Source of the DNA: an uncultured Actinomycetota bacterium
Lineage (GTDB): Bacteria; Actinomycetota; Actinomycetes; Streptosporangiales; Streptosporangiaceae
Direction: 5' to 3'
DNA: 64,000 nt
Assembly: GCA_963740785.1 (NCBI GenBank)
Contig: CAVUFO010000014.1
Location: 156,605-220,604, forward strand
In this document: positions 24,718 to 59,873 of the stretch, piece after piece
Layout: every line of letters starts with the position of its first letter
How positions within the stretch are numbered: position 1 is the stretch's first letter
Program-made: the position numbers and the translations under genes
The notes under the pieces: model-generated
What the model was told of the DNA's origin: nothing
Databases searched by the model: none
What the model saw: only the letters and a program-made list of their open reading frames with translations

Positions 24718-25761
24718 CTAGAACACCGAGATGTGCACGTGGTCGTAGTGGTTCGCGGTGATGCTGCCGCGATCGGGCATCGCCACCCAGCCCGCTGAGG
24801 CCATCCTGATGTCCCAGATGTGCTGCCGGTAGATGATGTACATGATCCCGAGCTCGGACGCGTTGGCCTGGGCCCAGTGCGCGATCGCGTATCCGAGCTG
24901 GACGTTGGCGGCCGTCGGCATGACGCCGCCGGAGCTGAGCATGAAATCGCATGCCCGGCCGAGCGGGTGCTCGCCGGTGGCCTCTGCCCGGTAGCAGCCG
25001 ATCGCGGAGAACGGGCCGAACCGCCGGTCGACAGCGTTCTTCACCGCCGCCATGCGGGGGGTGATGCTGCCGCCGATCACGGGCGACTGAGGGCGGAACT
25101 TGGCCAGCAGGCGCTTGACGGTCTGCCGCTGGCGCTCGAGCGCCGTGATCATCTTGCGCAGGTCGGCGACTTTGGTCCTGGCCGCCTTATCGGCGCTCTC
25201 GCTGGTGAGGATGAGGTGCTGCAGGGCACGCTGCCTGATGCTGCGCTGCCGCGCCAGGTACGTGATCAGGGCCGACCTGTCCATGATCCCGCGGGCATGG
25301 CCGCTGAACAGGGCGAGGAGCTGCTGGTCAGTCCCGCCGTTCAGGTAGCTGGCGACGGCCAGCCTGGACATCTGATGCCGGGAGATGCCGAGCTGATGGC
25401 GCACCATCCTGGCTCGTGACGCCGCCGCGTCCGCGTCGGCCCCGGCGCCGGCGAGCGTGTCGAGCTCGCCGCGGTACTGCTTGGCCAGCTTCGCCGCGCG
25501 TGCTTCAAGCCGCGCCAGCGTCAGGTGCCCGTCGCTGCCTGCCAGCGCCGCATCGGCGGCCAGGACCGCGCTGCGGGCGGACCGCGCCGCGGAACTCGCG
25601 GTCGCGGCGTCTCCGGCTGACGAGGCAACCAGGGCGCCGGCAAGCGCGGCGACGAGGGCGGCCGAGCGACCGTAGCTGCCGAGGCGAGAGCCACGCGCGG
25701 GCGCGGGCCCGCGCCGGAAAGCGATCCTGCGAGCCACGGGGATCAGGTCCGGACGGCGCAC
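24718..25761 (-). CDS. Secreted coiled-coil protein with a C-terminal cell-wall-hydrolase-like domain
   Basis: Signal-like N-terminus (SAALVAALAGALVASSAG) and a long heptad-rich middle. The C-terminal motif is GEHPLGRACDFM...LGYAIAHWAQANASELGIMYIIYRQHIWD...DRGSITANHYDHVHISVF, seen in actinomycete and phage lytic-type proteins. The GTG at 25761 was chosen (GGAGGAGG 7 nt upstream); the ORF track start is 25872. Confidence 0.65.
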   Translation of the reverse strand: MRRPDLIPVARRIAFRRGPAPARGSRLGSYGRSAALVAALAGALVASSAGDAATASSAARSARSAVLAADAALAGSDGHLTLARLEARAAKLAKQYRGELDTLAGAGADADAAASRARMVRHQLGISRHQMSRLAVASYLNGGTDQQLLALFSGHARGIMDRSALITYLARQRSIRQRALQHLILTSESADKAARTKVADLRKMITALERQRQTVKRLLAKFRPQSPVIGGSITPRMAAVKNAVDRRFGPFSAIGCYRAEATGEHPLGRACDFMLSSGGVMPTAANVQLGYAIAHWAQANASELGIMYIIYRQHIWDIRMASAGWVAMPDRGSITANHYDHVHISVF

Positions 25762-25981
25762 AGGGTCACCTCCTCCTGTCGTCCGCGGCGGGCTGGGCAC
25801 GCGCCGTCGTCCACGCCGGTAGGAGCGAACTGACGCCGACCATAGCAGCCAAAACAGCCGTCCGTGGCCCATCTGGCCTGATCGCAGGCGTGGTGCCCTG
25901 TGCCGCCGCCGCCGCCCGTTGGTGAACGTCGCCGGTGCGGCCGTGACGAGCCCGAACGGCTGGCCGCGAGGCGCGGGACGA

Positions 25982-26389
25982 CTACGCGGCGACGTGGCGC
26001 GCTGTCTTCAGACAGGAGCGAGGTCGGGTCGCGCCGGCGTTTATCTTCGCGTACATCCAGGGGCGGCCGGCCTGGACGGCGTACATCCACGGCCTGCCGG
26101 CGGGAACGGCGTACATCCACGGGCGCTTGAGCTTTGCCGCGTGCAACGGTGCCGCCTTGCGTGCCGCACAGAAACTGGCCGCGCTGGCCGACGTACCCGC
26201 TGGATGCTGCGGCCCGGCGACGTGCGCCGCGCCGGGCGATGCCGCTGCTGTAGCGCCGAAACTGACGAGGACGAGAGCTGGGACGGCGATGCTCCGCGCC
26301 AGTTGGGCGCGAGCCTGAGCGCGGCGAGCGCTGGCCGCCGATCCACCGGTTCGCGTGATTACATTCCGTAACGACCTGCGAGTCTGCAT
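25982..26389 (-). CDS. Small exported protein with three tandem RPWMYA decapeptide repeats (no recognised family)
   Basis: ATG 26389 is preceded by a GAGGAG RBS. Signal-like segment RRAQARAQLARSIAVPALVLVSFGATAAASPGAAHVA. Codon position 3 is richer in G+C than in the same-phase antisense ORF 25919..26371. The C-terminal half is KRPWMYAVPAG-RPWMYAVQAG-RPWMYAKINAG between two Cys. There is a TTA codon at position 7. Confidence 0.6.
   Translation of the reverse strand: MQTRRSLRNVITRTGGSAASARRAQARAQLARSIAVPALVLVSFGATAAASPGAAHVAGPQHPAGTSASAASFCAARKAAPLHAAKLKRPWMYAVPAGRPWMYAVQAGRPWMYAKINAGATRPRSCLKTARHVAA
26049..26138. repeat. 30-bp tandem repeat x3 (GCGTACATCCA core) inside the small exported protein gene
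   Basis: GCGTACATCCA occurs at 26049, 26079 and 26109, an exact 30-bp period. It encodes the RPWMYA repeats on the minus strand. Confidence 0.9.
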
Positions 26390-26527
26390 CGAGAAGGTCT
26401 CCTCTTTGGTGCCGAGATTGTCAGGCCCACCAGAACCGACAAGCTACCCGACCTGGCGGCTGCGGGAAGGGCGTTTGCACTGATTCACATGAGAGGTCCC
26501 GTCAATGCGGTTTACCTGCGATAACTT

Positions 26528-26542
26528 CGTGTGAATCACACG
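26528..26542. promoter_or_regulatory. 15-bp perfect palindrome CGTGTGA-A-TCACACG in the divergent SARP / small-protein intergenic region
   Basis: Read directly. A matching half site, TGATTCACA, lies at 26481..26489. Both are 90-150 bp upstream of the small gene's start. Confidence 0.4.
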
Positions 26543-26602
26543 TGCGCGAGCACCCGGGCGGCGCCCCGCCGTCCCGGTACATGACTGCCTGCCACGAATG
26601 AA

Positions 26603-26641
26603 TCCAACGGTCCTGATCGCCGAGGGGGCAGGACCGTTGGA
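26603..26641. other. Hairpin with a 13-bp perfect stem (TCCAACGGTCCTG / CAGGACCGTTGGA) and a 13-nt loop
   Basis: Read directly. It sits at the edge of the AT-rich part of the intergenic region. No U-tract follows, so its role (operator, RNA structure or terminator) is unclear. Confidence 0.6.
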
Positions 26642-26926
26642 CTCAGCGTCCTGGCCTCCTTCGAACGAATTGTATATACGGACAGTGACGAATATTCCGT
26701 TCGCAGGGCTGCGCCGACATCAGAATCAGCCGGCCTCCGCTAAGAATGTCGATGCAAGTTTCATTCAAGCTCGCAATGCGAGAATGCATTATTCCATCAT
26801 TTCTTGCCGTCCCATCAGAATTCATGTGAGATGGGGCTAGAGCGCGGGTATTAATGCGGCCAGAATGGTTGTGTAGGTCACATTCGGCGGCCTTGCCCGC
26901 AGAGGGTAGAAGAGCGCAAGACGATC

Positions 26927-29900
26927 ATGGAATTTCGGGTCCTCGGGCCGACGGAGCTGTGGTTGGCCGGACAGCAACGTGACCTGGGTCCAGCCAGGGA
27001 GCGCGGTGTCCTGGCGATCCTGCTCCTGACACCTGGGACGATCGTTCCCGCCGAGACCCTGATCGACAGGCTCTGGGACGCCCAGCCGCCCGCGAAAGCA
27101 CGCGAGAGCTTGTCCGTCTACGTCGCGAGGCTGCGGGCATCCCTCCGGCAGGCACTCGGGGACAGCGTCAGGCTGGCTGGGCGCCTCAGCGGCTACGCGC
27201 TCGACGTCGATCCCGAGGCCGTCGACCTGCATCAGTTCCGCCAGCTGCGCCGCCGGGCGGACGCCCTGGTGGCCGGCGGTGACCATGACGGCGCTGCTCA
27301 GCTGCTGCGCGAGGCCGACGGGCTCTGGCGCGGGCAGGCGCTGGCCGGGATCCGCGGTGACTGGATGGCGCGGATGAGGCACAGCCTCGAGGAAGAGCGC
27401 AGGGCCGCGATGCTGCAGCGCGTCGAGTGTGACCTCGAGCTTGGCCGGCATGCCGATCTCGTTGGTGAGCTCCGCGGCCTGCTCGCCCAGTATCCGCTCG
27501 ACGAGACGCTCGTCGGGCACCAGATGGAGGCCCTGTACCGGTGCGGCAGGCCGGGTGACGCCCTGAGCCTGTACCGGGAGACGCGCAGCCGCCTGGTCTC
27601 CGAGCAAGGCACCGAGCCGGGTCCGGCGCTGTCCGAGCTCCATCAGCGGATCCTGCGCCAGGACCGGCCGCCAGCCGTCCGTGCGGGTACCCAGCGCCGG
27701 GGCCAGGCGGCGGAGCGGGACACGCTGCCGCCCGAGCCGCCGGAGTTCGTGGGCCGCAACGAGGAACTCGCGCTGCTGGCAGGCGAGCATGGCGATAAGC
27801 CCAGGGTCAGCGTGATCGAGGGCATGCCAGGGGTCGGGAAGACCGCTCTCGCGGTCCGCGCGGCCCGCATGGTCGCTGACCACTACCCGGACGGCGTCTT
27901 CTACCTCGATCTCCAGGCGCACGACCCGGGCTCCCCGTCCCTGGACTCGGCCGACGCGCTGCATCGCCTGCTCAGGATGCTCGGCGTGCCCGCGACCCAG
28001 ATCCCCGAGTCGATCGGCGAGCGCGCCGCGCTGTGGCGGGCCCAGCTCAGCAGGCGGCGCGCCGTTGTCATCCTGGACGACGCCGCGCCGCATGATCAGG
28101 TACGTCCGCTGCTGCCGGGTGCGGGGCGGAGCCTGATCCTCATCACCGCCCGGCGCAGGCTGCCCGACCTTGACGGCGCCGACGTGCTGACCCTCGATGT
28201 CCTCTCACCAGAAGAGGCCGTCACGCTGTTCGCCCGGATCGCGGGCCTGGGCGGCGGCGGGGACGAGGACGTGCTGACGACAGCGGCCGCGTTGTGCGGG
28301 CGGTTGCCGCTTGCCATTCAGCTCACCGCGGGGAGGCTGGCACAGGCCGAACCCCGCCCGCGCAGCCTCGCCGACCTCGTGGCCGAGCTGTCCAGGCCGC
28401 CCGCCAGGATCGGCGACACGGGCGCCGCGAGCGCTGAAGTGCTCGCGGCCTTTGAGCTGTCCTACCGGGCGCTCGAACCGGACCATCAGCGGTTCTTCCG
28501 GCGCCTCGGCGTGAATCCGTGCGCGCGGGTCAGCCGTGCAGCAGCGGCGGCGCTTGGCGGCAGCACGCTGGCCGAAGCTGACCGGGCGCTGCGCGCACTG
28601 CGCGATCACCACCTGCTCGTCCAGGTCGACGAGGGCCAGTTCCGGTTCCATGACCTCATCCGCGAGTTCGCGTCGGTCCGCGCCGAGGAAGAGGAATCCG
28701 GGTCGGAGCGGCGGCAGGCGGTCGGCAGGCTCCTCGACTTCTATGTGCACGCCGCGGACGGGGCCGACCGGGTGCTCCAGCCGTTCCGGCACCGCATGCC
28801 CGCGCCGGTCAAGAATCCGCCCGCGGCCAGTCCTGCGCTTACCACGACGGAGGCCGCGGCAGCCTGGCTGGAATCAGAATGGCGGAATATCCTGCAGCTC
28901 GCGCAGTACGCGGGCAGGCATGAATGGAAGCGGCAATGCGCTGACCTTACGCATCTGCTGGCGGCCTTCGTCGATATCAGCGGCTACTGGGACGAGGCGA
29001 TCGCTGGCCACACGCTCGCGCTTCAGGCTGCCCGTGATCTCGACGACCAGGCCAGGATCGCTCGGGCGTCGCTCGAGCTCAGCATTGTGAGCCAGCAGAC
29101 CGGGCGGCATGAGGCCACGTTGAGCCTCGCCGAGGACGCGGCGGCGGTCTACCGGTCGCTCGGCGACGACCGCGGGCTCGCCGAGGCTCTCGACCAGATC
29201 GGCCTGGTCAACCAGCGTGCCGCCCGCTCCCGCGAGGCGCTGGCGTACTTCAGCGAGTCCGGGACCTTGTACGGCGACGCCACGGACCAGCACGGCAGGG
29301 CCGTTGCACTCAGTCACGCGGGCATCGCCTGCTGGCACCTGGGCCGCTATCCGGACGCCATGAACCAGTTGCGCGAGGCGCTGTCGCTCTACCGCGACGT
29401 GGGTGACCGGCGCGGCGAGGCGAAGACGCTCAATAACCTCGGCAAGATGCAGCTGCATTGCGGCCGCCACAGGGACGCGCTGGAAAGCTACGAGCAGTCG
29501 CTGCGGATATTCGGCGAAATCGGCGGAGCGCAGAACCAGGCGATCCTGTATCACAATATTGGCAGCGTCTACCATTACAAGGGCAGCTACGAGAAAGGGC
29601 TGTCCGCATACCAGCACGCGCTCGCTATCTACCGCGCCATCGGTGATCTTCCTGACGAGGCTGACGTTCTCAACGACATCGGCGCCATCTACCAGGCCGC
29701 GGAATGCTACGACGAGGCGCTGATCCACTACGAGCAGGCGAGGCTGATCGCCGAGGACATCGGGAACCTCGCGCAACAGGTGATGGCGCTTCGCGGGATA
29801 GCCGACGTCCGGCGCGGGTCAGGCCGCTGCACCGAGGCCTCCGGCAGCTACGAGGCGGCGCTCGCCCTCGCCAGGCAGATCGGCGATCCCTACGAGGAGG

Positions 29901-30082
29901 CCAAGGCGCTCGAGGGAATCGCCGAGACGATGCTCAGCACGCACCGGCCGCACGCGGCGCGGATCGCGTTCCGCCAGGCGCTGGACATCTTCGAGCGGCT
30001 CGGGGTGCCAGAGGCCGAGTCGGCCAGGATCAGGCTGGAGACGACGGGCCCGCAGCCAGCCATCGGGCGCCGCCCGGCCTGA
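26927..30082 (+). CDS. AfsR/SARP-family regulator (OmpR-type wHTH + BTAD + NB-ARC ATPase + TPR)
   Basis: MEFRVLGPTELWLAGQQRDLGPARERGVLAILLL...LIDRLW (SARP wHTH). BTAD segment (LHQFRQL...ALYRCGRPGDALSLYRETRSRL). P-loop GMPGVGKTALA. The C-terminal half consists of TPR repeats (LNNLGKMQLHCGRHRDALESYEQSL and similar). Confidence 0.92.
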   Translation: MEFRVLGPTELWLAGQQRDLGPARERGVLAILLLTPGTIVPAETLIDRLWDAQPPAKARESLSVYVARLRASLRQALGDSVRLAGRLSGYALDVDPEAVDLHQFRQLRRRADALVAGGDHDGAAQLLREADGLWRGQALAGIRGDWMARMRHSLEEERRAAMLQRVECDLELGRHADLVGELRGLLAQYPLDETLVGHQMEALYRCGRPGDALSLYRETRSRLVSEQGTEPGPALSELHQRILRQDRPPAVRAGTQRRGQAAERDTLPPEPPEFVGRNEELALLAGEHGDKPRVSVIEGMPGVGKTALAVRAARMVADHYPDGVFYLDLQAHDPGSPSLDSADALHRLLRMLGVPATQIPESIGERAALWRAQLSRRRAVVILDDAAPHDQVRPLLPGAGRSLILITARRRLPDLDGADVLTLDVLSPEEAVTLFARIAGLGGGGDEDVLTTAAALCGRLPLAIQLTAGRLAQAEPRPRSLADLVAELSRPPARIGDTGAASAEVLAAFELSYRALEPDHQRFFRRLGVNPCARVSRAAAAALGGSTLAEADRALRALRDHHLLVQVDEGQFRFHDLIREFASVRAEEEESGSERRQAVGRLLDFYVHAADGADRVLQPFRHRMPAPVKNPPAASPALTTTEAAAAWLESEWRNILQLAQYAGRHEWKRQCADLTHLLAAFVDISGYWDEAIAGHTLALQAARDLDDQARIARASLELSIVSQQTGRHEATLSLAEDAAAVYRSLGDDRGLAEALDQIGLVNQRAARSREALAYFSESGTLYGDATDQHGRAVALSHAGIACWHLGRYPDAMNQLREALSLYRDVGDRRGEAKTLNNLGKMQLHCGRHRDALESYEQSLRIFGEIGGAQNQAILYHNIGSVYHYKGSYEKGLSAYQHALAIYRAIGDLPDEADVLNDIGAIYQAAECYDEALIHYEQARLIAEDIGNLAQQVMALRGIADVRRGSGRCTEASGSYEAALALARQIGDPYEEAKALEGIAETMLSTHRPHAARIAFRQALDIFERLGVPEAESARIRLETTGPQPAIGRRPA

Positions 30083-30199
30083 CCCCGCCAGCGCGGGCCA
30101 CCGGTCACCGCCGATGCAAGGCAAGCATCAAGCCAGATGTAAGACAACCGTCCTGGTGTGCCGCAGACGATGAGGGCGCGGCTAACCCGGGAGGTCTTT

Positions 30200-31405
30200 G
30201 TGAGCCTGCTGCCTGACACGCGATCGTACGCCCCTGATCTCGCCCTCGACAGCCTGCTCGTCAGCGCCGAGCGGTTCGTCACCGAGTTCCACTGCGAGAA
30301 CCACGCCGGATCGCCTGACCGGCGGCTGCGCCAGGTCAGGCGGGAGGTCGGCGCGACGGGCACCTACCGGCACACCGCGGCGGAGCTCGAGTTCGGCGCG
30401 CGCGTCGCCTGGCGCAACAGCGCGCGATGCATCGGCCGGCTGTACTGGAAGAGCCTGCGCGTGCGTGACCGGCGCGAGGTCTCGGCCGCGCCAGACGTGG
30501 CGGCCGAGTCGGTCACGCACCTGCGCGAGGCGACGAACGGCGGGCGGATCAGGCCTGTCATCACGGTGTTCGCGCCGGACGCGCCAGGCAGGCCCGGCCC
30601 GCGGATCCTCAACTCGCAGCTCGTCAGGTACGCGGGCCACGCGCCCGCCGGCGGAGCGGCGATCACGGGCGACCCCGCGAGCGCTGATCTCACCAGGCTG
30701 GCGCGCGACCTCGGCTGGCAAGGTGGCAGCCCGCCCGGCCGGTTCGACGTGCTCCCGCTGATCGTCCAGGCGCCCGGCGCGTGTCCCACGCTGCACGAAC
30801 TGCCAGCGGACGCGGTGCTGGAGATCGCCATCGGGCACCCGGAGTTCGGCTGGTTCGCCGATCTCGGGCTGCGCTGGTACGCCGTGCCCGTGATCAGCGA
30901 CATGTACCTCGAGATCGGCGGGGTCTGCTATCCGGCAACGCCGTTCAACGGCTGGTACATGGGCACCGAGATCGGGTCACGGGACTTCGGCGATACCGGC
31001 CGCTACGATCAGCTGCCGGTCATCGCCACGCGCATGGGCCTGTCGACGGCCAGCGACCGGACGCTGTGGAAGGACAAGGCGCTGACCGAGCTCAACCTTG
31101 CCGTGCTGCACTCGTTCAGCGTCGCGGGCGTCACGATCGCCGACCACCACACCGAGTCCGTACGCTTCCTGCGGCACCTCGAGCGCGAGGAGCGGCAGGG
31201 CAGGGCGTGCCCGGCCGACTGGACGTGGATCGTGCCGCCAGCAGCGTCGTCGGCGACGCCGGTCTTCCATCGCTACTACCAGAACTTCGACCAGACGCCG
31301 AACTTCTACCGGCACATGCCGCCAGCCGGTCAGCCGGCCGTGTTAGCGGCGGGCCCGAGCAGCGGCGTGCCGCCAGGACGCATCAGGCCGGCCTTCATGA
31401 GCTAA
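30200..31405 (+). CDS. nos: Bacterial nitric-oxide synthase, oxygenase domain
   Basis: WRNSARCIGRLYWKSL (heme-thiolate Cys loop), RPVITVF, NGWYMGTEIGSRDF, ADHHTES and DWTWIVPP. The GTG at 30200 was chosen (GGGAGG 5 nt upstream); the ORF track start at 30158 is also possible. There is a TTA codon at 31342. Confidence 0.92.
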   Translation: MSLLPDTRSYAPDLALDSLLVSAERFVTEFHCENHAGSPDRRLRQVRREVGATGTYRHTAAELEFGARVAWRNSARCIGRLYWKSLRVRDRREVSAAPDVAAESVTHLREATNGGRIRPVITVFAPDAPGRPGPRILNSQLVRYAGHAPAGGAAITGDPASADLTRLARDLGWQGGSPPGRFDVLPLIVQAPGACPTLHELPADAVLEIAIGHPEFGWFADLGLRWYAVPVISDMYLEIGGVCYPATPFNGWYMGTEIGSRDFGDTGRYDQLPVIATRMGLSTASDRTLWKDKALTELNLAVLHSFSVAGVTIADHHTESVRFLRHLEREERQGRACPADWTWIVPPAASSATPVFHRYYQNFDQTPNFYRHMPPAGQPAVLAAGPSSGVPPGRIRPAFMS

Positions 31406-31528: not shown

Positions 31529-32065
31529 TCATGGGCGGGCGGCCGGCACGGCTGGCAGCCGGTAAATGGCGATGGGGGCATCACTGGGCTCCGTCGCCAC
31601 TCGCCGGACCTCGACGAGCTCGAATCCGTTCTTCTCAAGCACGCGGCGCGAGGCGATGTTGGCCGCGTCAGGCCCGGCCAGCACGCCGGCGCCGGGCAGC
31701 TGGCGCCTGATCTCCGCAACCAGGACAGCGACCAGCTCGGTGCCAGTGCCGCGTCCGATCCACGCGGGGTCACCGATCGCGTAGTCAATCCCGGCTTCGC
31801 CGTCGCGAGCGCCCATCGCGGCTTCCTCGTCGGGGTAGTCCGCCCAGCGATACCACTGGCACCAGCCAATGGGCCTGCGGCCGCACAGGACGGTCAGCAT
31901 GATGGTGTCACCGAGCCCGCCGGGCCCGATCCGCAGCCGGTACCTGGCTAGCTCTGCCTCGGCCGTGGTGTCAGGGGTCCACCAGCGGGCCACGTGCGGC
32001 AAGCGCAGCCACGCGGCGATGCCCGGGAGGTCCTCCTCGGCCATCGGCGACAGGCTGAGCGTCAC
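31529..32065 (-). CDS. GNAT N-acetyltransferase (AAC(6')/Acetyltransf_8-like)
   Basis: LSPMAEEDLPGIAAWLRLPHVARWW...IDYAIGDPAWIGRGTGTELV...ANIASRRVLEKNGFELV. Confidence 0.8.
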   Translation of the reverse strand: MTLSLSPMAEEDLPGIAAWLRLPHVARWWTPDTTAEAELARYRLRIGPGGLGDTIMLTVLCGRRPIGWCQWYRWADYPDEEAAMGARDGEAGIDYAIGDPAWIGRGTGTELVAVLVAEIRRQLPGAGVLAGPDAANIASRRVLEKNGFELVEVRRVATEPSDAPIAIYRLPAVPAARP

Positions 32066-32225: not shown

Positions 32226-32690
32226 CTAAGCCGGCTGCGGAACCGCCGGATGGGCGGCGATCAGCAGCAGCGCGTCGAGCAGCCGCCACCAGTCTGGCTC
32301 GGCCACGTCCCTGCCGATAGCATCCGCGAGCGCCGCGAGCGCCGCCACGATCCTGGGCGTGAACTCCTCGGCGTTCTGCCCCCGCGATCTGGCCATGACG
32401 CCGGCCGTCCGCCGGAATCGCGCGGTCCGCCCGAGCCTGACAAGCGACGCGGGTACCTGCGGCGGCGCCGCGTCGTTCGTCGCGCCGTCCGCGACGAGCG
32501 TCACCACCAGCCGCATGCCCAGCGCGTCCGCGAGCCGGGACAGCGCCGCGGTGGTCGGATTTCCCCTGCCGTTCTCCAGGTTGGCAATGTAGGGAACCGA
32601 GAGTCCGGCATCGGCCGCCACGGACGCGACAGTCCGGCCGGCCGCGGTGCGCTGTGCTCGCAGCTGACGGCCGATCGCGAGATCTTCCAT
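32226..32690 (-). CDS. XRE-family HTH transcriptional regulator
   Basis: IGRQLRAQRTAAGRTVASVAADAGLSVPYIANLENGRGNPTTAALSRLADALG. Confidence 0.85.
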   Translation of the reverse strand: MEDLAIGRQLRAQRTAAGRTVASVAADAGLSVPYIANLENGRGNPTTAALSRLADALGMRLVVTLVADGATNDAAPPQVPASLVRLGRTARFRRTAGVMARSRGQNAEEFTPRIVAALAALADAIGRDVAEPDWWRLLDALLLIAAHPAVPQPA

Positions 32691-32779: not shown

Positions 32780-33990
32780 ATGTTCCACGCTCTGCGCGTC
32801 AGGGATTTCCGGCTGCTCTGGAGCGGGGACCTGATCAGCTCGCTCGGATCCTGGGTGCTGATCCTGGCCGTTCCGGCTCACGTCCTGCTCGTGACCGGTT
32901 CGCTGCGTGCCAGCGGACTGACGCTCGCCGCGCAGTATGCGCCCATGCTCGTCCTTGGCCCGGTCGCCGGCGTCTGCGCAGACCGGTGGGACCGGCGGCA
33001 CTTGCTGATCGCGGCCGATCTCGTCCGTGCGGGCGCCGTCGCGGCGATGCTGGCCGGCCTGTCGCCAGGTCGCTTGTGGATCGTGTTCGTTGCCCTGGTC
33101 ACCGAGAGCAGCGCCGGCGTGCTGTACGCGCCAGCCAGTCAGGCACGCACGCCGGTCATCGTCGGCACCGGGCCGCTTCTGGCCAGCGCCAACTCGCTGT
33201 ACGCGGCGACCGACGGCGTGGTGCGGCTAATCGGGGGCCCGCTGGGCGGCATCCTGCTGGTCTCCATCGGCATCCGGTGGCTCATCGTCGCCGATGCTGT
33301 CAGCTACCTGGTCTCGGCCGGCGCGATCGCGCTGACGTCGAGAGCAGACGCCGCGAGCGGCGACGCCCGCGAGCAGGCGACGATCGCGGCACTGGTCCGC
33401 GACCTGACCGACGGGCTGCGTGCGCTTCGCGATGACCGGTTCGCCAAAGCGCTGCTCCCGGTGACCGTGATCTTCCTGGCAGCCAACGCGTCGCTCAGCG
33501 CCGTCCTGATCCCGTTCGGCGTGCGGCGCCTTGGTGGTGTCCCGCACACGGGGTTGTTGCTGTCCTGCCTGGGTGCGGGGTTCCTGGCGGGCGCGCCAGT
33601 GCTGCGCGCGCTCGTTGACCGGGTCCGGCCGCGCATCTTGCTCCCGGTGACGCTGACCGGCACCGCCGCGGGCTACTTCGCGCTGTTCACGGCGGGCGGG
33701 CTCGCCGCGGCGCTGCCCGCCGCTGTATTGATCGGCCTGTTCGGCTCCATGTCGGAGATCATCCCGCTGACCGCCGTGCAGCGGGCTGTCGCCAGCGCGG
33801 TGCTCGGCCGGGTCTGCGCGGTGTTCCTGACCTGCGAGGCGGCTGCCACGCTGATCGGCTCGGCGGCCGGGCCGTTTCTCGCTCAGGCGGCGCAGTTCTC
33901 CCGCCTCGCGGCCGTTGCCAGCGCGGCCACCGTCTGCGCCGCGGCGCTGGCGCTGCTGCGGGTACCGTCGGCTGGCCATGGGCGGCGTGG
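32780..33990 (+). CDS. MFS transporter (EntS/MFS_3-like); the 3' end is unresolved
   Basis: MFHALRVRDFRLLWSGDLISSLGSWVL... with about 12 predicted helices ending near ...AALALLRVPSAGHG. The formal ORF has no in-frame stop until 34282, and that tail is antisense to the APC gene. The end coordinate given is approximate. Confidence 0.75.
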
Positions 33991-33994
33991 ACCG

Positions 33995-35200
33995 GCGGCT
34001 CCACGCGGAATAGCAGCAGGTAGTGAGCGCGAGGGCGGCCGGGGCCAGGAGCGCCCAGCCGCAGTACGGGAGCATCGCGAGGACGGCGAGCGACGCGACG
34101 CCGGCGGCCAGGCGGACGGCGCCGCGCAGCACACGGGTGGCGGCGAGCATGCTGCCCAGGTACACGGTGATGAACAGCGCGGTCGGCAGCGTGACCAGCG
34201 ACACCGTGCTCACCAGCCTGAGCCCGTACAGCGTGATGAGCACCAGCCCCGCCGCCGCGATCGCCGCGAGGAAGAGCGGTGACCGGGCCCTGGTCAGCTG
34301 GCGCGCCATCACCACGGCGCCGCTGACATAGGCGTTGACCGCCCCGACCGTGAGCACCACGGCGGCGGCGGCCGCGGCGATGCTGCCTGCCGGGCCCGCC
34401 GCGACCCTGAGCAGGTCAGCGAGCGGAACGGGGCCGGCCGCTGCCCGGCCGAGCACGCTGATCGTCGCGATGGCCAGGCCGAGGTAGAGCGCGGACGTGA
34501 CCGCCAGCGCGATCGCGATCACCCTGGGCAGCTGCCTGGCCGGGCTCGCGAACCGCGTCGTGAGCGGCGCGACGGCCTCCCAGCCCACGAACGACAGCAT
34601 CAGCGTGGTCGCGGCGTGCCCGACGGACATCCAGCCGTGCGGCGCGAACGGGCTCCAGTTGGCGGCACGGGCCGACGGAGCTGACCCGATGACGGCCACC
34701 GCCACGACCGCGATCAGCAGCGCGACAAGCACCAGCTGCGCGCCTGCGCTCGCGCGCAGCCCCGCGGCCGACAGGCCGAGCACGACGAGCAGCAGCAGCG
34801 CGGCCACCGCGGCGCGCACCGGCAGGCCGCCGCCGGTCAGCGTCGTGACGTAGCTCGCTCCGATCAGGCAGACGATCGGGGCGCCGCCCGCGACACCCGT
34901 CAGGAAGCACCAGCCGGCCACCCGGCCGGTCCGCTGGCCGAGTCCCGCGGCGACGTAACCCATGATCCCGCCCGCCTGCGGGAAACGCCGGCCCAGCCCG
35001 GAGAAGACGGCGGCGAACAGCCCGGACAGGCCGAGCAGCGCGAGCCAGGCCACGATCGACGCGGGGCCAGCCTCGGCCGCGGCGAGCCCTGGCAGCAGGA
35101 GCAGCCCCGGGCCGAGCAGGGCGCCGATGTAGAGCGCGGACCCCCGCGTCGTGGTGAGATTTCCGAGCGTCTTCGGGCGGAGAACAGGTGCTTTCGTCAT
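33995..35200 (-). CDS. APC-family amino-acid permease; the 3' end is unresolved
   Basis: MTKAPVLRPKTLGNLTTTRGSALYIGALLGPGLLLLPGLAA... with about 12 helices ending near ...LALTTCCYSAW. The formal ORF runs to 33227 as an Arg-rich tail antisense to the MFS gene. The lower coordinate is approximate. Confidence 0.75.
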
Positions 35201-38641: not shown

Positions 38642-39058
38642 ATGGCTGGTTTGACGATCGGGAAGTTCGCGGCCGAGGCGGGCGTCAGCGTCGAGACGGT
38701 GCGGTTCTACCAGCGCCGCGGCCTGCTGGCGCTGCCTGAGCGGCGCGGCTCGGGATTCCGCGAGTACACGGAGGCCGACCAGTGGCGGCTCGCCTTCATC
38801 CGCCGCGCACGCCAGCTCGGGTTCACCCTCGCCGAGATCCGCGACCTGCTCGGTCCTGCCGAGGCGCGGTCGACCGCCGACATCACCAGGGCCGCCGAAG
38901 CGAAGCTCGCGGCGATCGCCGGCCAGATCGCCGAGCTGGCCGCGCTGCAGTGCCGGTTGCGCAGGCTCGTCCGGGTCTGCGCGCACGGCAGCCGCGACGA
39001 CTGCGTGGCCCTGCACCTGCGTGACCCTGGCCACGCCTGCGCGCAGGCGGCGTGCTGA
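38642..39058 (+). CDS. MerR-family transcriptional regulator with a Cys-rich C-terminus
   Basis: LTIGKFAAEAGVSVETVRFYQRRGLL...FREYTEADQWRLAFIRRARQLGFTLAEI, and C-terminal cysteines (VCAHGSRDDCVALH...HACAQAAC). Confidence 0.88.
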   Translation: MAGLTIGKFAAEAGVSVETVRFYQRRGLLALPERRGSGFREYTEADQWRLAFIRRARQLGFTLAEIRDLLGPAEARSTADITRAAEAKLAAIAGQIAELAALQCRLRRLVRVCAHGSRDDCVALHLRDPGHACAQAAC

Positions 39059-39117
39059 ACCGGCCGGCCTGATCACTTCGAAAGGAACAACGTGATGAGC
39101 ATGTCGAGGAACGAGCG

Positions 39118-39447
39118 ATGAGCACCGCCAGGGCAGTGACCGACCACAGCTTCGACGCCGACGTGCTGGCGAGTCCCCGGCCGGTCATCGTCGAGTACTG
39201 GGCGCCGTGGTGCGGCCCGTGCCGGTTGGTCGGCCCGGTGCTCGACGAGATCGCCGCCGAGTACGCGGGCAACGTCGACGTGGTCAAGCTGAACACGGAC
39301 GAGAACCCGCAGTCGATGATCAAGTACGGGGTGCTGGCGGTCCCGACCATCAACCTGTTCTCCGGCGGCGAGGTCGTCAAGCAGGTCATCGGCGCCAAGT
39401 CCAAGTCCGCCCTGCTCCGCGAGTTCGCCGATCACCTCCCCGCCTGA
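39118..39447 (+). CDS. trxA: Thioredoxin
   Basis: 109 aa with VEYWAPWCGPCRLVGPVLDEIA and the YGVLAVPTINLF motif. Confidence 0.95.
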   Translation: MSTARAVTDHSFDADVLASPRPVIVEYWAPWCGPCRLVGPVLDEIAAEYAGNVDVVKLNTDENPQSMIKYGVLAVPTINLFSGGEVVKQVIGAKSKSALLREFADHLPA

Positions 39448-39464
39448 CCCTCCGCCCCTCGCGC

Positions 39465-39524
39465 GACCCCAGCTATGAACCCTTGGTGGGCCTATCGCGC
39501 CACTAAGGGTTCATAGCTGGGGTC
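39465..39524. repeat. Palindromic intergenic element, copy 1 (20-bp perfect stem, 20-nt loop), 17 nt after the trxA stop
   Basis: GACCCCAGCTATGAACCCTT-GGTGGGCCTATCGCGCCACT-AAGGGTTCATAGCTGGGGTC. It is near-identical to 61746..61799. Confidence 0.9.
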
Positions 39525-39546
39525 GAGATGGGGCTGGCGGGGGCTG

Positions 39547-40299
39547 GTGGGGCGCGGTTACGGTGCGGGGATGGGAGCTTCGCGGCCGGATTGGGTTGAT
39601 TTTCACTTCGATCTCATGTGCCCGTACGCGTATCAGACCTCGCTGTGGATACGCGAGGTTCGCGACAGGACCGGGCTGGAGATCAACTGGCGGTTCTTCA
39701 GCCTCGAAGAGATCAACAGGGCAGAAGGCAAGAAGCATCCGTGGGAGCGCGAGTGGTCTTACGGATGGTCGCTGATGCGGATCGGCGTGCTGCTCCGGCG
39801 GCAGGGGATGGCGCAGCTCGACGCCTGGTACGCCACCGCTGGCCGGGCGTTGCACGTCGACGGCGAGAAGCCGCACGTGCCGGACGTGGCCAGGCAGATC
39901 CTCGCGCGCATGGGTCAGGATCCCGGGCTCGTCGATGCCGCCATCGCCGATCCGACCACCGGCGACGAGGTGCTCGCCGAGCACCGCAGGGTCACGCGGG
40001 CCGGCGGGTTCGGCGTGCCGACCCTGTTCTTCCCTGACGGGCAGTGCCTGTTCGGGCCCGTTCTCATCGATCCGCCAGCGTGCGAGGCGGCCGAGCGGCT
40101 CTGGGACGCGGTCGTCGCGTGGACCGCGTTCCCGCACCTGTACGAGATCCAGCGGCCGAAGTCACGCTCGGACGCCGATGCGATCGCCGCCACGTTCCTG
40201 CCGTATCTTCAGGCCCGGGACTGGGTCAGCATCAACCGCGGCCAGGTCGTGGACTTCGCTCCGCCGGCAGCCGCGGAGACCGAAGGGAGCGCACCGTGA
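39547..40299 (+). CDS. DsbA-family thiol oxidoreductase-like protein (single-Cys CPYA motif)
   Basis: [22 protein letters not shown]... and [19 protein letters not shown], which fit a DsbA/HCCA-isomerase-like fold. Confidence 0.75.
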
Positions 40300-41132
40300 G
40301 CAAGCTTGAGGGCGAGGCTTCAGCCAGGGCCGAGCAGTCCCGCGTCGTGGAGCTGCTCGGGCAGGAGTGGGCCGTCATCGGCGACCTGCTCGCCGGGCTC
40401 GGCGACCGGGCGTGGTCCCGCCAGGTGCTGCCCGGCTGGGATGTGCACGACGTGCTCGCGCACATCATCGGCACCGAGCGGATGCTGTCCGGCGCCGAGT
40501 TCCCCGCCGCGCCCGACGGCGACCCCGGCGCGCACGTGCGCAATGACATCGGCCGTGCGAACGAGGCCTGGGTCATCGCGCTGCGCGACCGCCCGCACGG
40601 CGCCCTGCTCGACGACTTCCGCGCGGTGACCGCCAGCCGGCTGGCCAGCCTGCGGACGATGCCGCCCGGGGAATTCAACGCGCCGTCCTGGACGCCCGCC
40701 GGCCAGGCGACCTACGCCCGCTTCATGCGGATCAGGATCTTCGACTGCTGGATGCACGAGCAGGACATCAGGGCGGCGACCGGGATGCCTGGCAACGAAG
40801 ACGGCCCCGCCGCCGCAGCCGCGCTCGACGAGGTCGTGCTGGCGCTCGGCTACATCATCGGCAAGAAAGGCCGCGCTCCCGACGGCAGCTCGGTGCTGAT
40901 CAGGCTCACCGGCCCGGTCGAGCGCGACCTGCCCGTCGTGGTTGACGGACGGGCGAGGGTAGTTCCGGCAATGAATGGCGAGCCGACGGCGAGCCTGGAT
41001 TTGTCATCGTCGCTGTTCCTGCGCCTGGCCGGCGGCCGGGAAGATGCGCAGGCGGCGCTCGGCCGGATCCGGCTCGGCGGCGACCAGGAGCTCGCGCGTC
41101 AGCTGGCGACGAACCTGGCCTACACGATCTGA
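40296..41132 (+). CDS. Mycothiol-dependent maleylpyruvate-isomerase-family (DinB/MDMPI_N) protein
   Basis: The GTG at 40296 overlaps the previous stop (GTGA). [17 protein letters not shown]..., [12 protein letters not shown] and C-terminal ...[11 protein letters not shown]. Confidence 0.75.
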
Positions 41133-41145
41133 GGTTCTGGCCCCG

Positions 41146-41913
41146 TCAGCGCGAGGCGGCGCGGGCGACCAGCGCGATGCCCTTGCCCCAGGAGGCGAGC
41201 TGGCCGGGCGGCAGGTACGCGGTGCCCTTCATGGTGTGGTCCACCATCGGGGTGGTCACGTACCGCTCCTTGCCGTGCGGATCGATGAAGTAGATCAACG
41301 ACGTGTGGATGACGTCCGCGTTCTTGTTCGGGGCCCGGACGTCGATCTGATAGCGATTCCAGACGGTGCGCAGGGCCGGCACGGAGCCGGTGACGAAGTG
41401 CCAGGACGGTATCGTGCTCAGCCCCTCCGAGCTGGAGTAGCCGGCCATGTCGGCGACCTTGTTGTGGTACGGGTTGACGTTCACCGCGATGAAGACCACC
41501 TTGCCGCGGGCCGGGCCGAGGTCCTTGTACGCGTCGATGAACTCGCGGGAGACCAGCGGGCAGATGTCGGTGCAGTGCGAGTCCATGAAGGTCAGCACGA
41601 CGGTCCTGCCGCGCAGGCTCGCGAGCGAAACCGGCCGTCCAGACTGGTCGGTCAGCGTGAACCCTGGCGCCGTGGCCGGCTGCACCGGCGACAGCTGCAT
41701 CATGGTGGCCAGCTTCGTGCTGACGCTGCCCGGAATGCCGGTGGCGCGGAGCGGAGGCCCGCCGCTTCGCCCGGTGAGGGCCGTCACCACGAAGGCGAAC
41801 ACGGTCGCGAACGCGATCCCGGACACGAGCGCGATGACGCCGAGCACGACCGTGGACCGGCGGGGCCTGGCGGACAACCTGCCGCGCCCTCTTGCCGCGC
41901 CAGTGTCGCTCAT
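41146..41913 (-). CDS. SCO1/SenC-family thioredoxin-like copper chaperone, membrane anchored
   Basis: N-terminal TM helix and FTLTDQSGRPVSLASLRGRTVVLTFMDSHCTDICPLV (CxxxC). Confidence 0.85.
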   Translation of the reverse strand: MSDTGAARGRGRLSARPRRSTVVLGVIALVSGIAFATVFAFVVTALTGRSGGPPLRATGIPGSVSTKLATMMQLSPVQPATAPGFTLTDQSGRPVSLASLRGRTVVLTFMDSHCTDICPLVSREFIDAYKDLGPARGKVVFIAVNVNPYHNKVADMAGYSSSEGLSTIPSWHFVTGSVPALRTVWNRYQIDVRAPNKNADVIHTSLIYFIDPHGKERYVTTPMVDHTMKGTAYLPPGQLASWGKGIALVARAASR

Positions 41914-42743: not shown

Positions 42744-44216
42744 ATGCCAGCTGACGTGAGCACACTCCTCGGAGGGCGCTACGAACTGCGGGCCCTGATC
42801 GGGACGGGCGGCTTCAGCGAGGTATGGCGGGCGCACGACCTGGTCCTCGACCGGCCGGTGGCGATCAAGCTGCTCGACGCCAAGTACGCCCGCGATGCCG
42901 AGGCACTGGCCAGGTTCCGCTCGGAGGCGCACAACGCTGGCAGCCTGTCGCACGGCAACATCGCGCGCGTCTACGACTTCGGGGAGCCAGACGGGCAGCA
43001 TCCGGGGTTCCTCGTCATGGAACTGGTGGACGGGCCAGCGCTCTCTGACGCGCTGGCAGCCGGGCCGCTGGACCCCGCCGCGAGCATGGACATCATCGCG
43101 CAGGCCGCGGCCGGCCTGCACGAGGCGCACCAGCATGGCCTGGTCCACAGGGACGTCAAGCCGGGCAACCTGCTGCTCGCGCACGAAGGGGTCAAGGTCG
43201 CCGACTTCGGGATCTCGCACGCCATGGACTCGGCGGCCATGACCAGCACGGGCATCGTGCTCGGCTCGCCCGGCTACGTGGCGCCGGAGCGCGCGTCCGG
43301 TGCCCGCGCGACGCCGGCCAGCGACCTGTACGCGCTCGGTGTCGTGGCTTACGAGTGCCTGACGGGCGCGCCGCCGTTCACCGGGGCCGGCCTTGAGGTG
43401 GCGCTGGCGCACGTGAACAAGCCGTTCCCTGAGCTGCCCGGGTTTGTGCCCTGGCAGGTGGCCGCGTTCGTGTTCGAGCTGACCAGCAAGGACCCCGCGC
43501 TGCGTCCTGCGGATGCTGCCGCGGTGGCGGAGCGCGCGGCGGGCCTGCGCGACGGCCTGGCGTGCGCCGTCGCCGCGGCGGAGGTGCCGGGCCCGGGCTC
43601 CCGCGTGCACCGGCCCGGGCCGGCAGCCGCCCGCCAGGGCACCGGTGGAGGCCGGCCGGCGGGTCCGGGCTCGCGCGGGCTGCGGCTGGCGCTGGCCGCC
43701 GCCGCGGCGGCCTGCCTGCTGGTTGGCGTCGTCATGGCCAGCCTGCTCTCCTCGGCCGGGACGCCCTCGGTCGCGTCGGCGCGGCATGGCACCGGCCACG
43801 TCTCTGAGCGGCTGAACCCGGCCTCACCTGCCGTCACGTCGGCGCTCGTCCGCAGCCGCTCCCTGGTCGGGCAGCCGGTGGCACTCGTCGTGCAGCGCCT
43901 GCGCCGCCTGGGCCTGGTGACCCGGGTGATCTGGCGGCCGACCGTGCTCGCGCCGCCGGGCACCGTCGTCGCCGTCCACCCGCACGGACGCCTGCGGGCG
44001 GGCAGCCTGATCACCGTCATCGGCGCCCGGCAGCGCAGGTCAGACGGGGCGGCGCGGCATGCGCCTGCCGCCGGGGGTCCCGGCGGTCCCGGTCCTGGCC
44101 ACGGCAAGGGCCACCGGAAGGACCCCGAGCACGGCCCAGCCCCCGGTCCGGCTGGCAGCGCGGGCACGGATGACGGCGCCGGCTCGGCTGACGGCAACAG
44201 CCAGGGCGACGGTTAG
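42744..44216 (+). CDS. Ser/Thr protein kinase with a TM helix and one extracellular PASTA-like domain
   Basis: GRYELRALIGTGGFSEVW, AIK, HRDVKPGNLL, DFG and GSPGYVAPE. TM helix LRLALAAAAAACLLVGVVMASLL. The C-terminal segment SLVGQPVALVVQRLRRLGL...PGTVVAVHP is PASTA-like. Confidence 0.92.
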   Translation: MPADVSTLLGGRYELRALIGTGGFSEVWRAHDLVLDRPVAIKLLDAKYARDAEALARFRSEAHNAGSLSHGNIARVYDFGEPDGQHPGFLVMELVDGPALSDALAAGPLDPAASMDIIAQAAAGLHEAHQHGLVHRDVKPGNLLLAHEGVKVADFGISHAMDSAAMTSTGIVLGSPGYVAPERASGARATPASDLYALGVVAYECLTGAPPFTGAGLEVALAHVNKPFPELPGFVPWQVAAFVFELTSKDPALRPADAAAVAERAAGLRDGLACAVAAAEVPGPGSRVHRPGPAAARQGTGGGRPAGPGSRGLRLALAAAAAACLLVGVVMASLLSSAGTPSVASARHGTGHVSERLNPASPAVTSALVRSRSLVGQPVALVVQRLRRLGLVTRVIWRPTVLAPPGTVVAVHPHGRLRAGSLITVIGARQRRSDGAARHAPAAGGPGGPGPGHGKGHRKDPEHGPAPGPAGSAGTDDGAGSADGNSQGDG

Positions 44217-46045: not shown

Positions 46046-46174
46046 GGCGGCCAGTCCCTGCCGCGGCGCTGGTCGCCGCCCGCCAACCGCGGCGCCTCCC
46101 CTGCGGAGCGCACTCGGTCACGCTGGCGGCGCGCGCCGGCCCTGAGTGTCCGAATCTGCTGTGATACTGGGAGT

Positions 46175-56961: not shown

Positions 56962-57528
56962 GTGAGCAAGGCGCGAGAGGCTGAGCCAATGCCGACCGTG
57001 GACGAGCTCAGCAAATTGCCCGAGGACGCGGCCAGGGCGGCACTGCACGGCTGTTGCCCGTCGGGTCGCTGGATCGAGGCGGTGACGGCACGCCGGCCGT
57101 TCGCCGACGCAGCGGCGCTGCTCGCGGCGTCGGATGCGGCCGTGGCCGGGCTGTCCGAAGCAGACCTGCGCGACGCGCTCGCCGGTCACCCGAGGATCGG
57201 CGACCGCCGGGTCGTTCGCGGGGGTCCTGGGGAGTCGTCCCCCGGGGCCAGCGCTGCGGCCAAAGGATGGTCGGGTCAGGAGCAGGCCGGCGTCCGCGAC
57301 GCGGACGCCGCCCTCAGGCGGGCGCTGGACGATGGCAACGCCGAGTACGAGCGCCGGTTCGGGCACATCTACCTGGCGTGCGCGACCGGCCGGAGCGCGT
57401 CCGAGCTGCTCGCTTTCCTGCGCGAGCGGCTCGGCAACGACCAGGAGACGGAGTGGGGCGTCGTGGCATCCGAGCTGGCCAAGATCAACCAGATCAGGCT
57501 GCGCAAGCTGATCGGTGACGTGTCGTGA
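56962..57528 (+). CDS. uraD: OHCU decarboxylase (2-oxo-4-hydroxy-4-carboxy-5-ureidoimidazoline decarboxylase)
   Basis: CCPSGRWIEAV...LSEADLRDALAGHPRIGD...YERRFGHIYLACATGRSASELLAFLRERLGND. It lies immediately upstream of the HIU hydrolase and uricase genes. Confidence 0.85.
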   Translation: MSKAREAEPMPTVDELSKLPEDAARAALHGCCPSGRWIEAVTARRPFADAAALLAASDAAVAGLSEADLRDALAGHPRIGDRRVVRGGPGESSPGASAAAKGWSGQEQAGVRDADAALRRALDDGNAEYERRFGHIYLACATGRSASELLAFLRERLGNDQETEWGVVASELAKINQIRLRKLIGDVS

Positions 57529-57571
57529 GCGTCGTGCCGGAGGCGCGCGCGGTTGGCACCGAGGCGCGCCG

Positions 57572-57907
57572 GTGAGCGCCGTGAGCACGCACGTGCTGGA
57601 CACCGCGCGCGGCGAGCCGGCCAGCGGGATCCTCGTGCGGCTGGAACGTGCGGGCACCGGTGCGCTCGAGCTGGGCCGCGGCACCACCGACGCGGACGGG
57701 CGGATCTCCGACTTCGGCGTGGCCTCGCTGTCGGCCGGGACCTACCGCCTGGTGTTCGACACCGGCGGTTACCTGGCCGCGGCCGGGGAGGGGAGCGCGT
57801 TCTTCCCCGAGGTGGTGGTCACGTTCGCGGCCGACGGGCTCCGGCCCCGGTACCACGTGCCGCTGCTGCTCAGCCCGTACTCCTACTCGACCTACCGCGG
57901 GAGCTAG
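57572..57907 (+). CDS. uraH: 5-hydroxyisourate hydrolase (transthyretin-like)
   Basis: STHVLDTARGEPASGILVRL...DADGRISDF...YHVPLLLSPYSYSTYRGS, including the C-terminal YRGS signature. The GTG at 57572 was chosen. Confidence 0.9.
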   Translation: MSAVSTHVLDTARGEPASGILVRLERAGTGALELGRGTTDADGRISDFGVASLSAGTYRLVFDTGGYLAAAGEGSAFFPEVVVTFAADGLRPRYHVPLLLSPYSYSTYRGS

Positions 57908-57910
57908 GCC

Positions 57911-58816: not shown

Positions 58817-58873
58817 CCCGCATCGGGCGGAATGTGGCAGGCTGAGCGGTCTGGAGGGAGGCTTGCGACGCTG

Positions 58874-59866: not shown

Positions 59867-59873
59867 TCGGGCG

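Follow-up and report, generated by a model that had tools for sequence, protein, structure and literature searches.

What is the role of a nitric oxide synthase (NOS) gene that lies directly behind the gene for a large SARP regulator, in a region where no partner enzyme for nitric oxide (NO) chemistry is recognised? The question is raised by a stretch of 64,000 nucleotides from an uncultured actinomycete of the Streptosporangiaceae (assembly GCA_963740785.1, contig CAVUFO010000014.1, positions 156,605 to 220,604 of the forward strand), the whole of which is called the window here and is numbered from its first letter. Comparison of this locus with its relatives suggests that NOS is the regulated output of a conserved and portable cassette, which consists of a gene for a small peptide with an aromatic tail, a divergent SARP of the STAND/NLR type and a promoter with three repeats. 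We regard this reading as probable. Full-text literature searches returned no paper that links a SARP with NOS, and the cassette was not found described in the literature searched; its parts, a SARP activator, a bacterial NOS and a precursor like those of ribosomally synthesised peptides with post-translational modifications (RiPPs), are of known kinds and appear to be newly combined.

The SARP and NOS genes

The window is a G+C-rich (~70%) actinomycete sequence and its genes were called from third-position G+C. A Pfam scan covered the main called genes between ~2 and 61.7 kb of the 64 kb, less a few small calls, and a six-frame motif scan was run beside it. The SARP gene (26927-30082, forward strand) encodes an AfsR-like large SARP of 1051 aa in which Pfam recognises Trans_reg_C (residues 23-76), BTAD (residues 99-243, E 3e-39), NB-ARC (residues 290-490) and multiple TPR matches (residues 750-1030). 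Its approximate regions are an OmpR-type DNA-binding domain with BTAD (1-255), an NB-ARC/NOD region (270-640) and a TPR region (700-1040), and the F-HD switch motif is found in the translated NB-ARC/NOD region as FRFHDLIR. This F/Y-HD switch motif of large SARPs has been described (bioRxiv 10.64898/2026.09.02.748808). Both in the motif and in the arrangement of the OmpR-type/BTAD, NB-ARC and TPR parts the protein is like the large SARPs typified by the S. coelicolor AfsR-afsS system (PDB 8k60, 8jke and 8hvr), and its closest PDB match is AfsR itself (8k60, E 1e-107). The score against the AfsR equivalog of NCBIfam (NF053617) was 550.5 bits, far under the cutoff of 1430, and therefore we consider the protein to be an AfsR-like paralog and not AfsR. 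The model of HaaT, a TPR protein of cyclophane RiPPs (NF041717), was also matched below its cutoff (449.6 bits versus 1125) and in the NB-ARC and TPR part only.

The NOS gene (30200-31405, forward strand) encodes 401 aa with an oxygenase domain only. PF02898 is matched over profile positions 4-358 of 362 with an E-value of 1e-143 and the closest PDB match is the bacterial NOS 2flq (E 9e-114). The heme-cysteine motif (W85, R86 and N87 followed by C91, I92, G93 and R94; WRNxxRCIGR) and the GWYM.TEIG block of the substrate site were observed to be invariant in 15 NOS sequences. A fused reductase domain is absent by Pfam from the NOS of the window, which is 401-415 aa long and carries PF02898 alone. 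Bacterial NOS enzymes are normally without a dedicated reductase. The longest open reading frame spans 30158-31405, but the most likely start is predicted to be the GTG at 30200 because the closest homologs begin there (MSLL) and GGGAGG is placed 5 nt before it as a ribosome-binding site. With this start the gap between SARP and NOS is therefore 117 bp, and it would be 75 bp for the longest reading frame, in agreement with a preliminary description of the window which placed NOS about 75-120 bp behind the SARP stop on the same strand. The same description had reported no cytochrome P450, nonribosomal peptide synthetase (NRPS), polyketide synthase (PKS) or flavodoxin within about 10 kb, and this can be extended to the whole 64-kb window, where none of the four was detected in the main called genes by Pfam or by the six-frame motif scan. 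The sole match to a P450 heme-loop pattern, at 54332, lies in a hydrolase-like protein and was rejected as a P450.

Conservation of the SARP-NOS pair

A scan of the NOS alignment against species-representative genomes gave 80 NOS-anchored loci, which are numbered with the prefix L. The SARP gene adjoins NOS in 21 NOS-anchored loci from related uncultured Streptosporangiaceae-like genomes, where it is directly upstream on the same strand in 20 loci and inverted in L015. In the closest NOS clade (L001-L017 and L023) every locus has a full-length SARP ortholog beside NOS with 60-76% identity, and the range is 60-78% when the SARP-anchored loci described below are included. The two closest relatives, L081 and L082, where NOS is 87% identical, have a wider gene order in common with the window. 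Flanking genes vary in the other loci and therefore the SARP-NOS pair seems to move as a unit. Synteny in related genomes was the check that had been set beforehand and it was passed strongly, so that the gene orders indicate that the adjacency is not a product of chance.

More distant NOS genes were observed in other contexts, namely ffh-NOS-hmp-ftsY, a conserved Nonomuraea neighbourhood and two lajollamycin-like loci with P450, NOS and PKS genes. The preliminary description had taken actinomycete NOS to lie normally in NRPS clusters. This expectation does not hold in the present sample, where P450/PKS genes adjoin NOS in only two of the 80 loci (the lajollamycin-like L049 and L076). These two, from Streptomyces and Actinocrispum, have the order regulator-P450-NOS-type I PKS, as in the published lajollamycin layout Laj1-Laj4. 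Such lajollamycin-like loci (PMC10831120) in more distant relatives are the evidence for one alternative explanation, by which the NOS of the window would supply NO to a nitrating P450 and an NRPS or PKS in a distant cluster, with the SARP co-regulating both. However, the characterised NOS-dependent pathways that were found all hold NOS inside the cluster (PMC10831120, PMC12186263), and the conserved partners of this NOS clade are the SARP, the peptide, Hmp and DivIVA, and never an NRPS or PKS. We consider a distant cluster to be unlikely. A P450 in L023 was also considered as a NOS partner and was judged unrelated, being part of a TetR-ferredoxin-P450 unit beyond the genes for acetyl-CoA synthetase and Lgt.

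The repeat box upstream of NOS

The gap between the two genes contains a predicted SARP box at 30113-30145 (forward strand), which was recognised by alignment and with a position weight matrix (PWM) and is made of three direct repeats, GATGCAAGGCA / AGCATCAAGCC / AGATGTAAGAC. The consensus of the repeats is (T/G)GCAAGG-N4 and their period is exactly 11 bp. The box was aligned in 17 loci, with L005 added by eye, and the PWM was built from these 17 while two SARP loci stayed outside the training. All 21 SARP loci have a box in front of NOS. In 20 of them no other site scores as high with the PWM, the box reaching 19.6-31.5, and a lower-scoring copy (17.8) is found at the same place in L007; NOS loci without a SARP scored at most 18.5. 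The spacer between SARP and NOS varies from 104 to 1210 bp among the loci and the three-repeat box is always inside it. No second box at a comparable score was found with the PWM upstream of the genes for the peptide, the SARP or Hmp. In 80 SARP-anchored metagenome loci the same box is located 3' of the SARP gene whether the next gene is NOS, a major facilitator superfamily (MFS) transporter/P450 or a gene for a protein that we call c6. The box therefore follows the SARP regardless of the cargo and appears to belong to the SARP and not to NOS.

SARP sites are direct repeats 11 or 22 bp apart which lie beside the -10 element and overlap the -35 region, and AfsR binds such repeats overlapping -35 and recruits RNA polymerase (PMC10936776). 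The layout of the box agrees with this published rule, except for the exact 8-bp spacing to a -10 element, no clear -10 being seen. The predicted target is thus like that of AfsR in that direct repeats recur every 11 bp in the -35 region. It differs in that the afs box has two repeats, whereas three copies of (T/G)GCAAGG are present here, and in that only one gene, for the adjacent enzyme, is targeted, with a small peptide gene paired to the system in nearly all loci. The core promoter and leader follow at 30152-30199 (forward strand). CTGGT is conserved at 30153-30157, where the -10 region is expected, and it is followed by an inverted repeat (GCCGC at 30160-30164 and GCGGC at 30178-30182) and then by the GGGAGG ribosome-binding site at 30189-30194. 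The position of the inverted repeat is conserved but its arms differ by lineage, being GCCGC/GCGGC here and GGTAGCAC/GTGCTGCC elsewhere. Single-sequence folds gave a hairpin at this leader position in most loci and RNAalifold, which was run on a poor alignment, gave no consensus structure. The inverted repeat may serve as an operator or fold into a hairpin of the leader.

From the placement and distribution of the box we consider it very likely that NOS is transcribed from it in a SARP-dependent manner, which lends support to the SARP control of NOS that had been suggested in the preliminary description. In the mechanism we propose, the NB-ARC/TPR switch would be turned on, after which the SARP would bind the repeats overlapping the -35 region and recruit RNA polymerase as AfsR does, leading to transcription of NOS. 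The enzyme would then form NO from L-arginine with electrons passed on by cellular reductases that are not dedicated to it, in line with what is established for bacterial NOS. In this scheme the gene content, the conserved adjacency, the box that travels with the SARP and the alternative cargo genes are observed, and the binding of the SARP to the box, NO as the product and a role of the peptide are inferred.

The box also bears on a second alternative, by which this is an ordinary NOS for stress protection or the tuning of respiration, as in Bacillus and Staphylococcus, and its position behind a SARP is without regulatory meaning. Many bacterial NOS genes stand alone, a sister clade pairs NOS with hmp alone in a housekeeping region, and an interplay of NOS and Hmp is known in staphylococci (PMC10594633, PMC5539425). 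Against this, the SARP-NOS adjacency is kept in the 21 NOS-anchored loci despite changing flanks, and a SARP-type box is located exactly 5' of NOS, is absent from the SARP-less NOS loci and travels with the SARP. An ordinary stress NOS is therefore judged to be very improbable. The sister clade (L018-L022, L024, L026, L027, L045, L047 and L067) was observed to have NOS and a flavohemoglobin gene between ffh and ftsY-smc, without SARP or peptide, and because of this the NOS-hmp combination is apparently the older pairing. NOS of the window is 70-75% identical to such NOS genes, which lack the peptide and the SARP and are sited with hmp between ffh and ftsY.

In most of the NOS-type relatives the module includes the flavohemoglobin gene, whose product has globin, FAD and NAD domains, and, overlapping it, a gene for a DivIVA-domain protein; neither gene was found in the 64-kb window. 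The pair, which is usual beside NOS, would have been lost from the locus in the lineage of the window. The presence of hmp in the NOS module of most relatives resembles the known NOS-flavohemoglobin pairings (staphylococcal NOS/Hmp and Streptomyces NsrR-HmpA), from which the present locus differs by the absence of hmp in the window and by having a SARP as the regulator. The DivIVA-domain protein is ~240 aa long (L013:5014-5754 and equivalents). Its gene overlaps the flavohemoglobin stop and always occurs with flavohemoglobin, and no obvious link to NO chemistry is seen.

The divergent peptide gene

The third component is a small gene at 25982-26389 on the minus strand which encodes 135 aa and begins with ATG behind a GAGGAGA ribosome-binding site. 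Its product has a basic N-terminus (MQTRRSLRNVITRT), a hydrophobic segment of 14-17 residues that ends with AAASPG, three cores and a short basic tail. The cores are tandem RPWMYA(V)xAG units with two aromatic residues each, and a 30-bp tandem DNA repeat of 2.6 copies (26049-26125; Tandem Repeats Finder) encodes these RPWMYAVxAG cores on the minus strand. The preliminary description had suggested that this W/Y-repeat peptide might be part of the system, and indeed it was found to be a conserved third component of nearly all related loci. Conservation indicates that the reading frame is a real gene, with the GAGG(G/A)GA ribosome-binding site, the basic N-terminus, the hydrophobic stretch and the aromatic tail all kept within the family. 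A profile search gave 116 peptide clusters, all annotated as hypothetical and none with a Pfam match. The family is thus common in peat and soil metagenomes, and NOS relatives with ~80% identity are likewise abundant (at least 120) in such metagenomes and in metagenome-assembled genomes labelled Streptosporangiaceae; the family may be relevant to the NO that uncultured actinomycetes of soils produce.

Wherever NOS-anchored loci with a SARP include the upstream DNA, an ortholog of the peptide gene is found divergent from the SARP, with the exception of L010 where it is located beyond hmp. It is also found upstream in most SARP-anchored loci across all cargo types, and none was found among ~60 SARP-less NOS loci. 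When four contigs were picked by the peptide alone, all four had the order hmp-divIVA-peptide-SARP-NOS. The tails follow the pattern x-[W/F/Y]-x-[Y/W/F/L/M/V], either at the C-terminus or as repeated cores, and their variety is wide; for example, NPWMY, NPWRM, NAWMY, DTFLW and DPYMW were observed as well as the Phe-only cases DPFIF and DPFVF. Single-copy peptides end right at the motif, and 2-9 tandem cores are present in the window, in L081 and L082 and in several metagenome loci.

The divergent region between the peptide and SARP genes (26390-26926) is 537 bp long with a lower G+C, and alignment shows conserved blocks at both of its ends. Its length is kept at ~420-600 bp across the loci. 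An imperfect palindrome, ATGCAAGTTTCAT, is located at 26752-26764, ~165 bp upstream of the SARP ATG, and matches the conserved TGAAAGTTGCA / TGCAAGTTGCA site that relatives have at this place. As a candidate operator it could serve a second regulator or be an autoregulatory site of the SARP. The core TGCAA-N-TTGCA recurs in relatives ~170 bp 5' of the SARP gene, 5' of hmp and after NOS (L013:6509-6543 and L013:3759-3793), and its frequency in SARP loci is ~20 times that in the other NOS loci. Rfam gave no family for the window and the divergent intergenic regions. On the other side of the peptide gene, a Peptidase_A4 (eqolisin) gene is located in L081 (4862-5743) and L082 (4799-5680), between the gene for a secreted VldE-like protein and the peptide gene; comparison of 25762-25981 with these two loci shows that it has been lost from the window.

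Alternative genes behind the SARP

A metagenome scan with the SARP as anchor gave 80 orthologs with 69-78% identity, 62 of which had enough downstream DNA to score. NOS follows the SARP in 31 of the 62 loci, an MFS transporter and/or a cytochrome P450 in 16, the unknown protein c6 in nine, Hmp/DivIVA in two and other genes in four. The P450 of the sibling cassettes is closest to aryl-coupling P450s (CYP121, NascB, NzeB, AspB and the CDPS-associated family). Protein c6 is 250-400 aa long, gave no sequence match in Pfam, NCBIfam or the PDB (L119:6927-7832, L123:3688-4890 and seven more loci) and is a candidate for a new peptide-modifying enzyme or output protein. In the SARP tree the cargo type goes mostly by clade with few switches, and the SARP of the window falls between a group of NOS type and one of P450/c6 type.

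The same peptide, SARP and box appear to drive different genes, and therefore the cassette resembles a small P450-RiPP cluster with NOS in the enzyme slot. The simplest reading of these gene orders would be a small cassette like those of P450-RiPPs, with a large SARP as its cluster-situated regulator and with NOS having replaced the P450 in many lineages. The ancestral form would have been a P450-RiPP cluster of peptide, SARP, MFS transporter and aryl-coupling-type P450, and about half of the members, including the window, would have exchanged the P450 for NOS. The NOS of the window had earlier been described as an orphan. In about one quarter of the orthologous cassettes its position is filled by a P450, either alone or together with an MFS transporter, and the system seems better described as a swap of NOS for P450 in a RiPP-like cassette. 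It would then be a case of a regulated bacterial NOS outside nitration clusters, with NOS and P450 as interchangeable cargo behind one switch. Such interchangeable cargo points either to a peptide-linked circuit with NO as its output or to peptide chemistry of a new, NO-dependent kind.

The cassette shares with the P450-modified RiPPs (biarylitides, cyptides, atropopeptides and cittilins) a core at the C-terminus with two aromatic residues two positions apart, and its siblings have a P450, with or without an MFS exporter, where the window has NOS. It differs from them in that the window has no P450 beside the precursor gene and NOS is in the slot. The terms 'SARP' and 'nitric oxide' have no occurrence in a review of P450-modified RiPP clusters (PMC11659900).

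These likenesses lead to a third alternative, in which the RPWMY peptide is a RiPP precursor, NO derived from NOS nitrates or nitrosates its Trp or Tyr and the SARP is the cluster-situated activator. Catalysis of the nitration would fall to a heme protein with its gene elsewhere, to the flavohemoglobin of the relatives or to NOS itself. NOS and P450 share one position behind the same box, the core aromatics are at i and i+2 like those of the P450-RiPP cores WxW, YPW and WxxY (PMC11659900), dozens of NOS-type loci retain a peptide with an intact W/Y tail, and multi-copy cores are typical of RiPP precursors. A precedent is provided by RufN (NOS) and RufO (P450), which nitrate the ribosomal pentapeptide MRYLH (PMC12186263). 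However, known biological nitration is all P450-based, and a P450 is absent from the window and from 20 of the 21 NOS-anchored loci with a SARP, while flavohemoglobin is absent from the window. In addition, the NOS is canonical and, as noted, close to peptide-less and SARP-less NOS genes beside hmp; some of the tails have Phe only; and the frequent hmp partner argues for the release of free NO. Taken on its own, NO-dependent tailoring is considered doubtful, if less so than a distant cluster.

The known nitration pathways (TxtD/TxtE of thaxtomin, RufN/RufO, and Laj3/Laj2 of lajollamycin) are like the present system in that they use an actinomycete NOS of the oxygenase-only type, and rufomycin also in that NOS has beside it the gene for a ribosomal peptide that contains an aromatic residue. 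The system described here differs by having no nitrating P450, NRPS or PKS and by having a large SARP as its regulator. The rufomycin peptide is a product of 5 aa, whereas the peptides of the cassette are 80-200 aa long with a hydrophobic segment and often several cores.

The peptide as a candidate signal

In the cassette reading the peptide, which has three RPWMY cores in the window, would be the most likely source of a signal for the TPR sensor, and in the sibling cassettes it probably doubles as a RiPP-type precursor. We tentatively propose that the peptide, once processed to end in a free ...PWMY, is what the TPR domain recognises as its cognate ligand, which would make the cassette a peptide-to-NO relay, or else that a ribosomal peptide undergoes P450-free NO-dependent tailoring, which would be equally novel. 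The two models are not mutually exclusive and both can hold. TPR domains often bind free C-terminal peptides. The ligand model seems to be favoured by the pairing of peptide and SARP, which is kept across the cargo types.

A similar arrangement is known from the RRNPP systems (Rap/Phr, PlcR/PapR and NprR/NprX), where a pro-peptide gene is also located beside a cytoplasmic regulator containing TPR. The active part is presumably the last few residues in both cases, the tail of the present peptides is hypervariable like the pherotypes, and some of the precursors are multi-copy. The receptor here differs in that it is an NB-ARC/SARP protein and not of the RRNPP fold. The RRNPP systems are described as systems of the Firmicutes in a genome-scale survey (PMC10075063).

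Covariation between sensor and peptide was observed in the first set of loci, in which divergence of the TPR region tracked divergence of the peptide tail (n=18, r=0.5, p=0.003; partial Mantel test), with the NB-ARC domain, the DNA-binding domain and the peptide N-terminus serving as null controls. The pooled covariation is also positive, with the signal driven by one clade that has divergent tails.

Several points weigh against the cassette reading and should be set beside this. The link of the peptide to the TPR domain is weak, as the covariation of TPR and tail was not reproduced in an independent metagenome set which has little tail diversity (n=31, r=0.01, p=0.47). The peptide gene was not seen in the DNA of L107-L110, L139, L145 and L149, and the peptide's hydrophobic stretch might act as a Sec signal, as an anchor in the membrane or as the helix of a leader. 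Furthermore, a sigma-70 consensus scan shows no promoter at NOS and the -10 element is not clearly defined, and NOS may be transcribed by read-through from the SARP gene. A missing sigma-70 consensus is usual in activator-dependent Streptomyces promoters.

If the ligand model is true, it would give the first defined activating signal for the AfsR-like NLR-type SARPs, whose activating signals are called unknown (bioRxiv 10.64898/2026.09.02.748808), and an actinomycete peptide-to-NO relay in which one sensor scaffold switches either P450 or NOS. The cassette would be a minimal system with one regulator, one predicted site, one enzyme output and one adjacent candidate ligand gene, so that the questions of the SARP signal and of promoter recognition become directly testable in it; AfsR-like regulators are abundant.

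Inverted repeats around the hmp-containing modules

Long inverted repeats were observed to bracket the 7.5-8-kb hmp-divIVA-peptide-SARP-NOS module in L013 (3732-4083 and 11172-11358), and the same bracketing repeats are found in L003, L011, L012, L014, L017 and L023. The arm consists of 65-77 nt with CGTCAGCTGACG and TGCAACTTGCA, together with ~110 nt of the 5' coding region of hmp. Directly after NOS comes the right arm, which copies part of the hmp promoter and gene start in inverted orientation and is read as a false C-terminal extension of NOS. A transposon-like element was considered and rejected: the right arm is a copy of the promoter and 5' coding region of hmp, target-site duplications were not observed and the window has no counterpart of the repeats. 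The repeats suggest a past convergent arrangement of NOS and hmp, and possibly inversion or mobility.

Neighbouring genes in the window

The genes that flank the pair are as had been described earlier, namely a GNAT gene next to NOS (31529-32065), an XRE regulator (32226-32690), an amino-acid permease as the transporter (33227-35200) and, on the SARP side, a secreted protein without Pfam match (24718-25761), all of them on the minus strand. A redox/thiol-stress group is located at 38651-41877, 7-10 kb 3' of NOS, and could relate to nitrosative stress. It comprises genes for MerR, thioredoxin, an Rv2466c-like mycothiol-dependent nitroreductase, an MDMPI/DinB-type protein and an SCO1/AhpC-like protein, and is syntenic in L081 and L082.

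Further downstream, at 11-18 kb, a Ser/Thr protein kinase (42756-44216) and a LuxR-type regulator of 1410 aa with AAA_16 and GerE (44915-49147) are encoded. AfsR is under Ser/Thr kinase control. In relatives the module is also accompanied by LuxR-type AAA/TPR regulators and by a gene set of XRE-DUF5753, DUF397 and HATPase_c_2. In addition, genes for purine degradation were found at 56989-61723, including those for OHCU decarboxylase, uricase, a FAD subunit of the xanthine-dehydrogenase type and an amidohydrolase.

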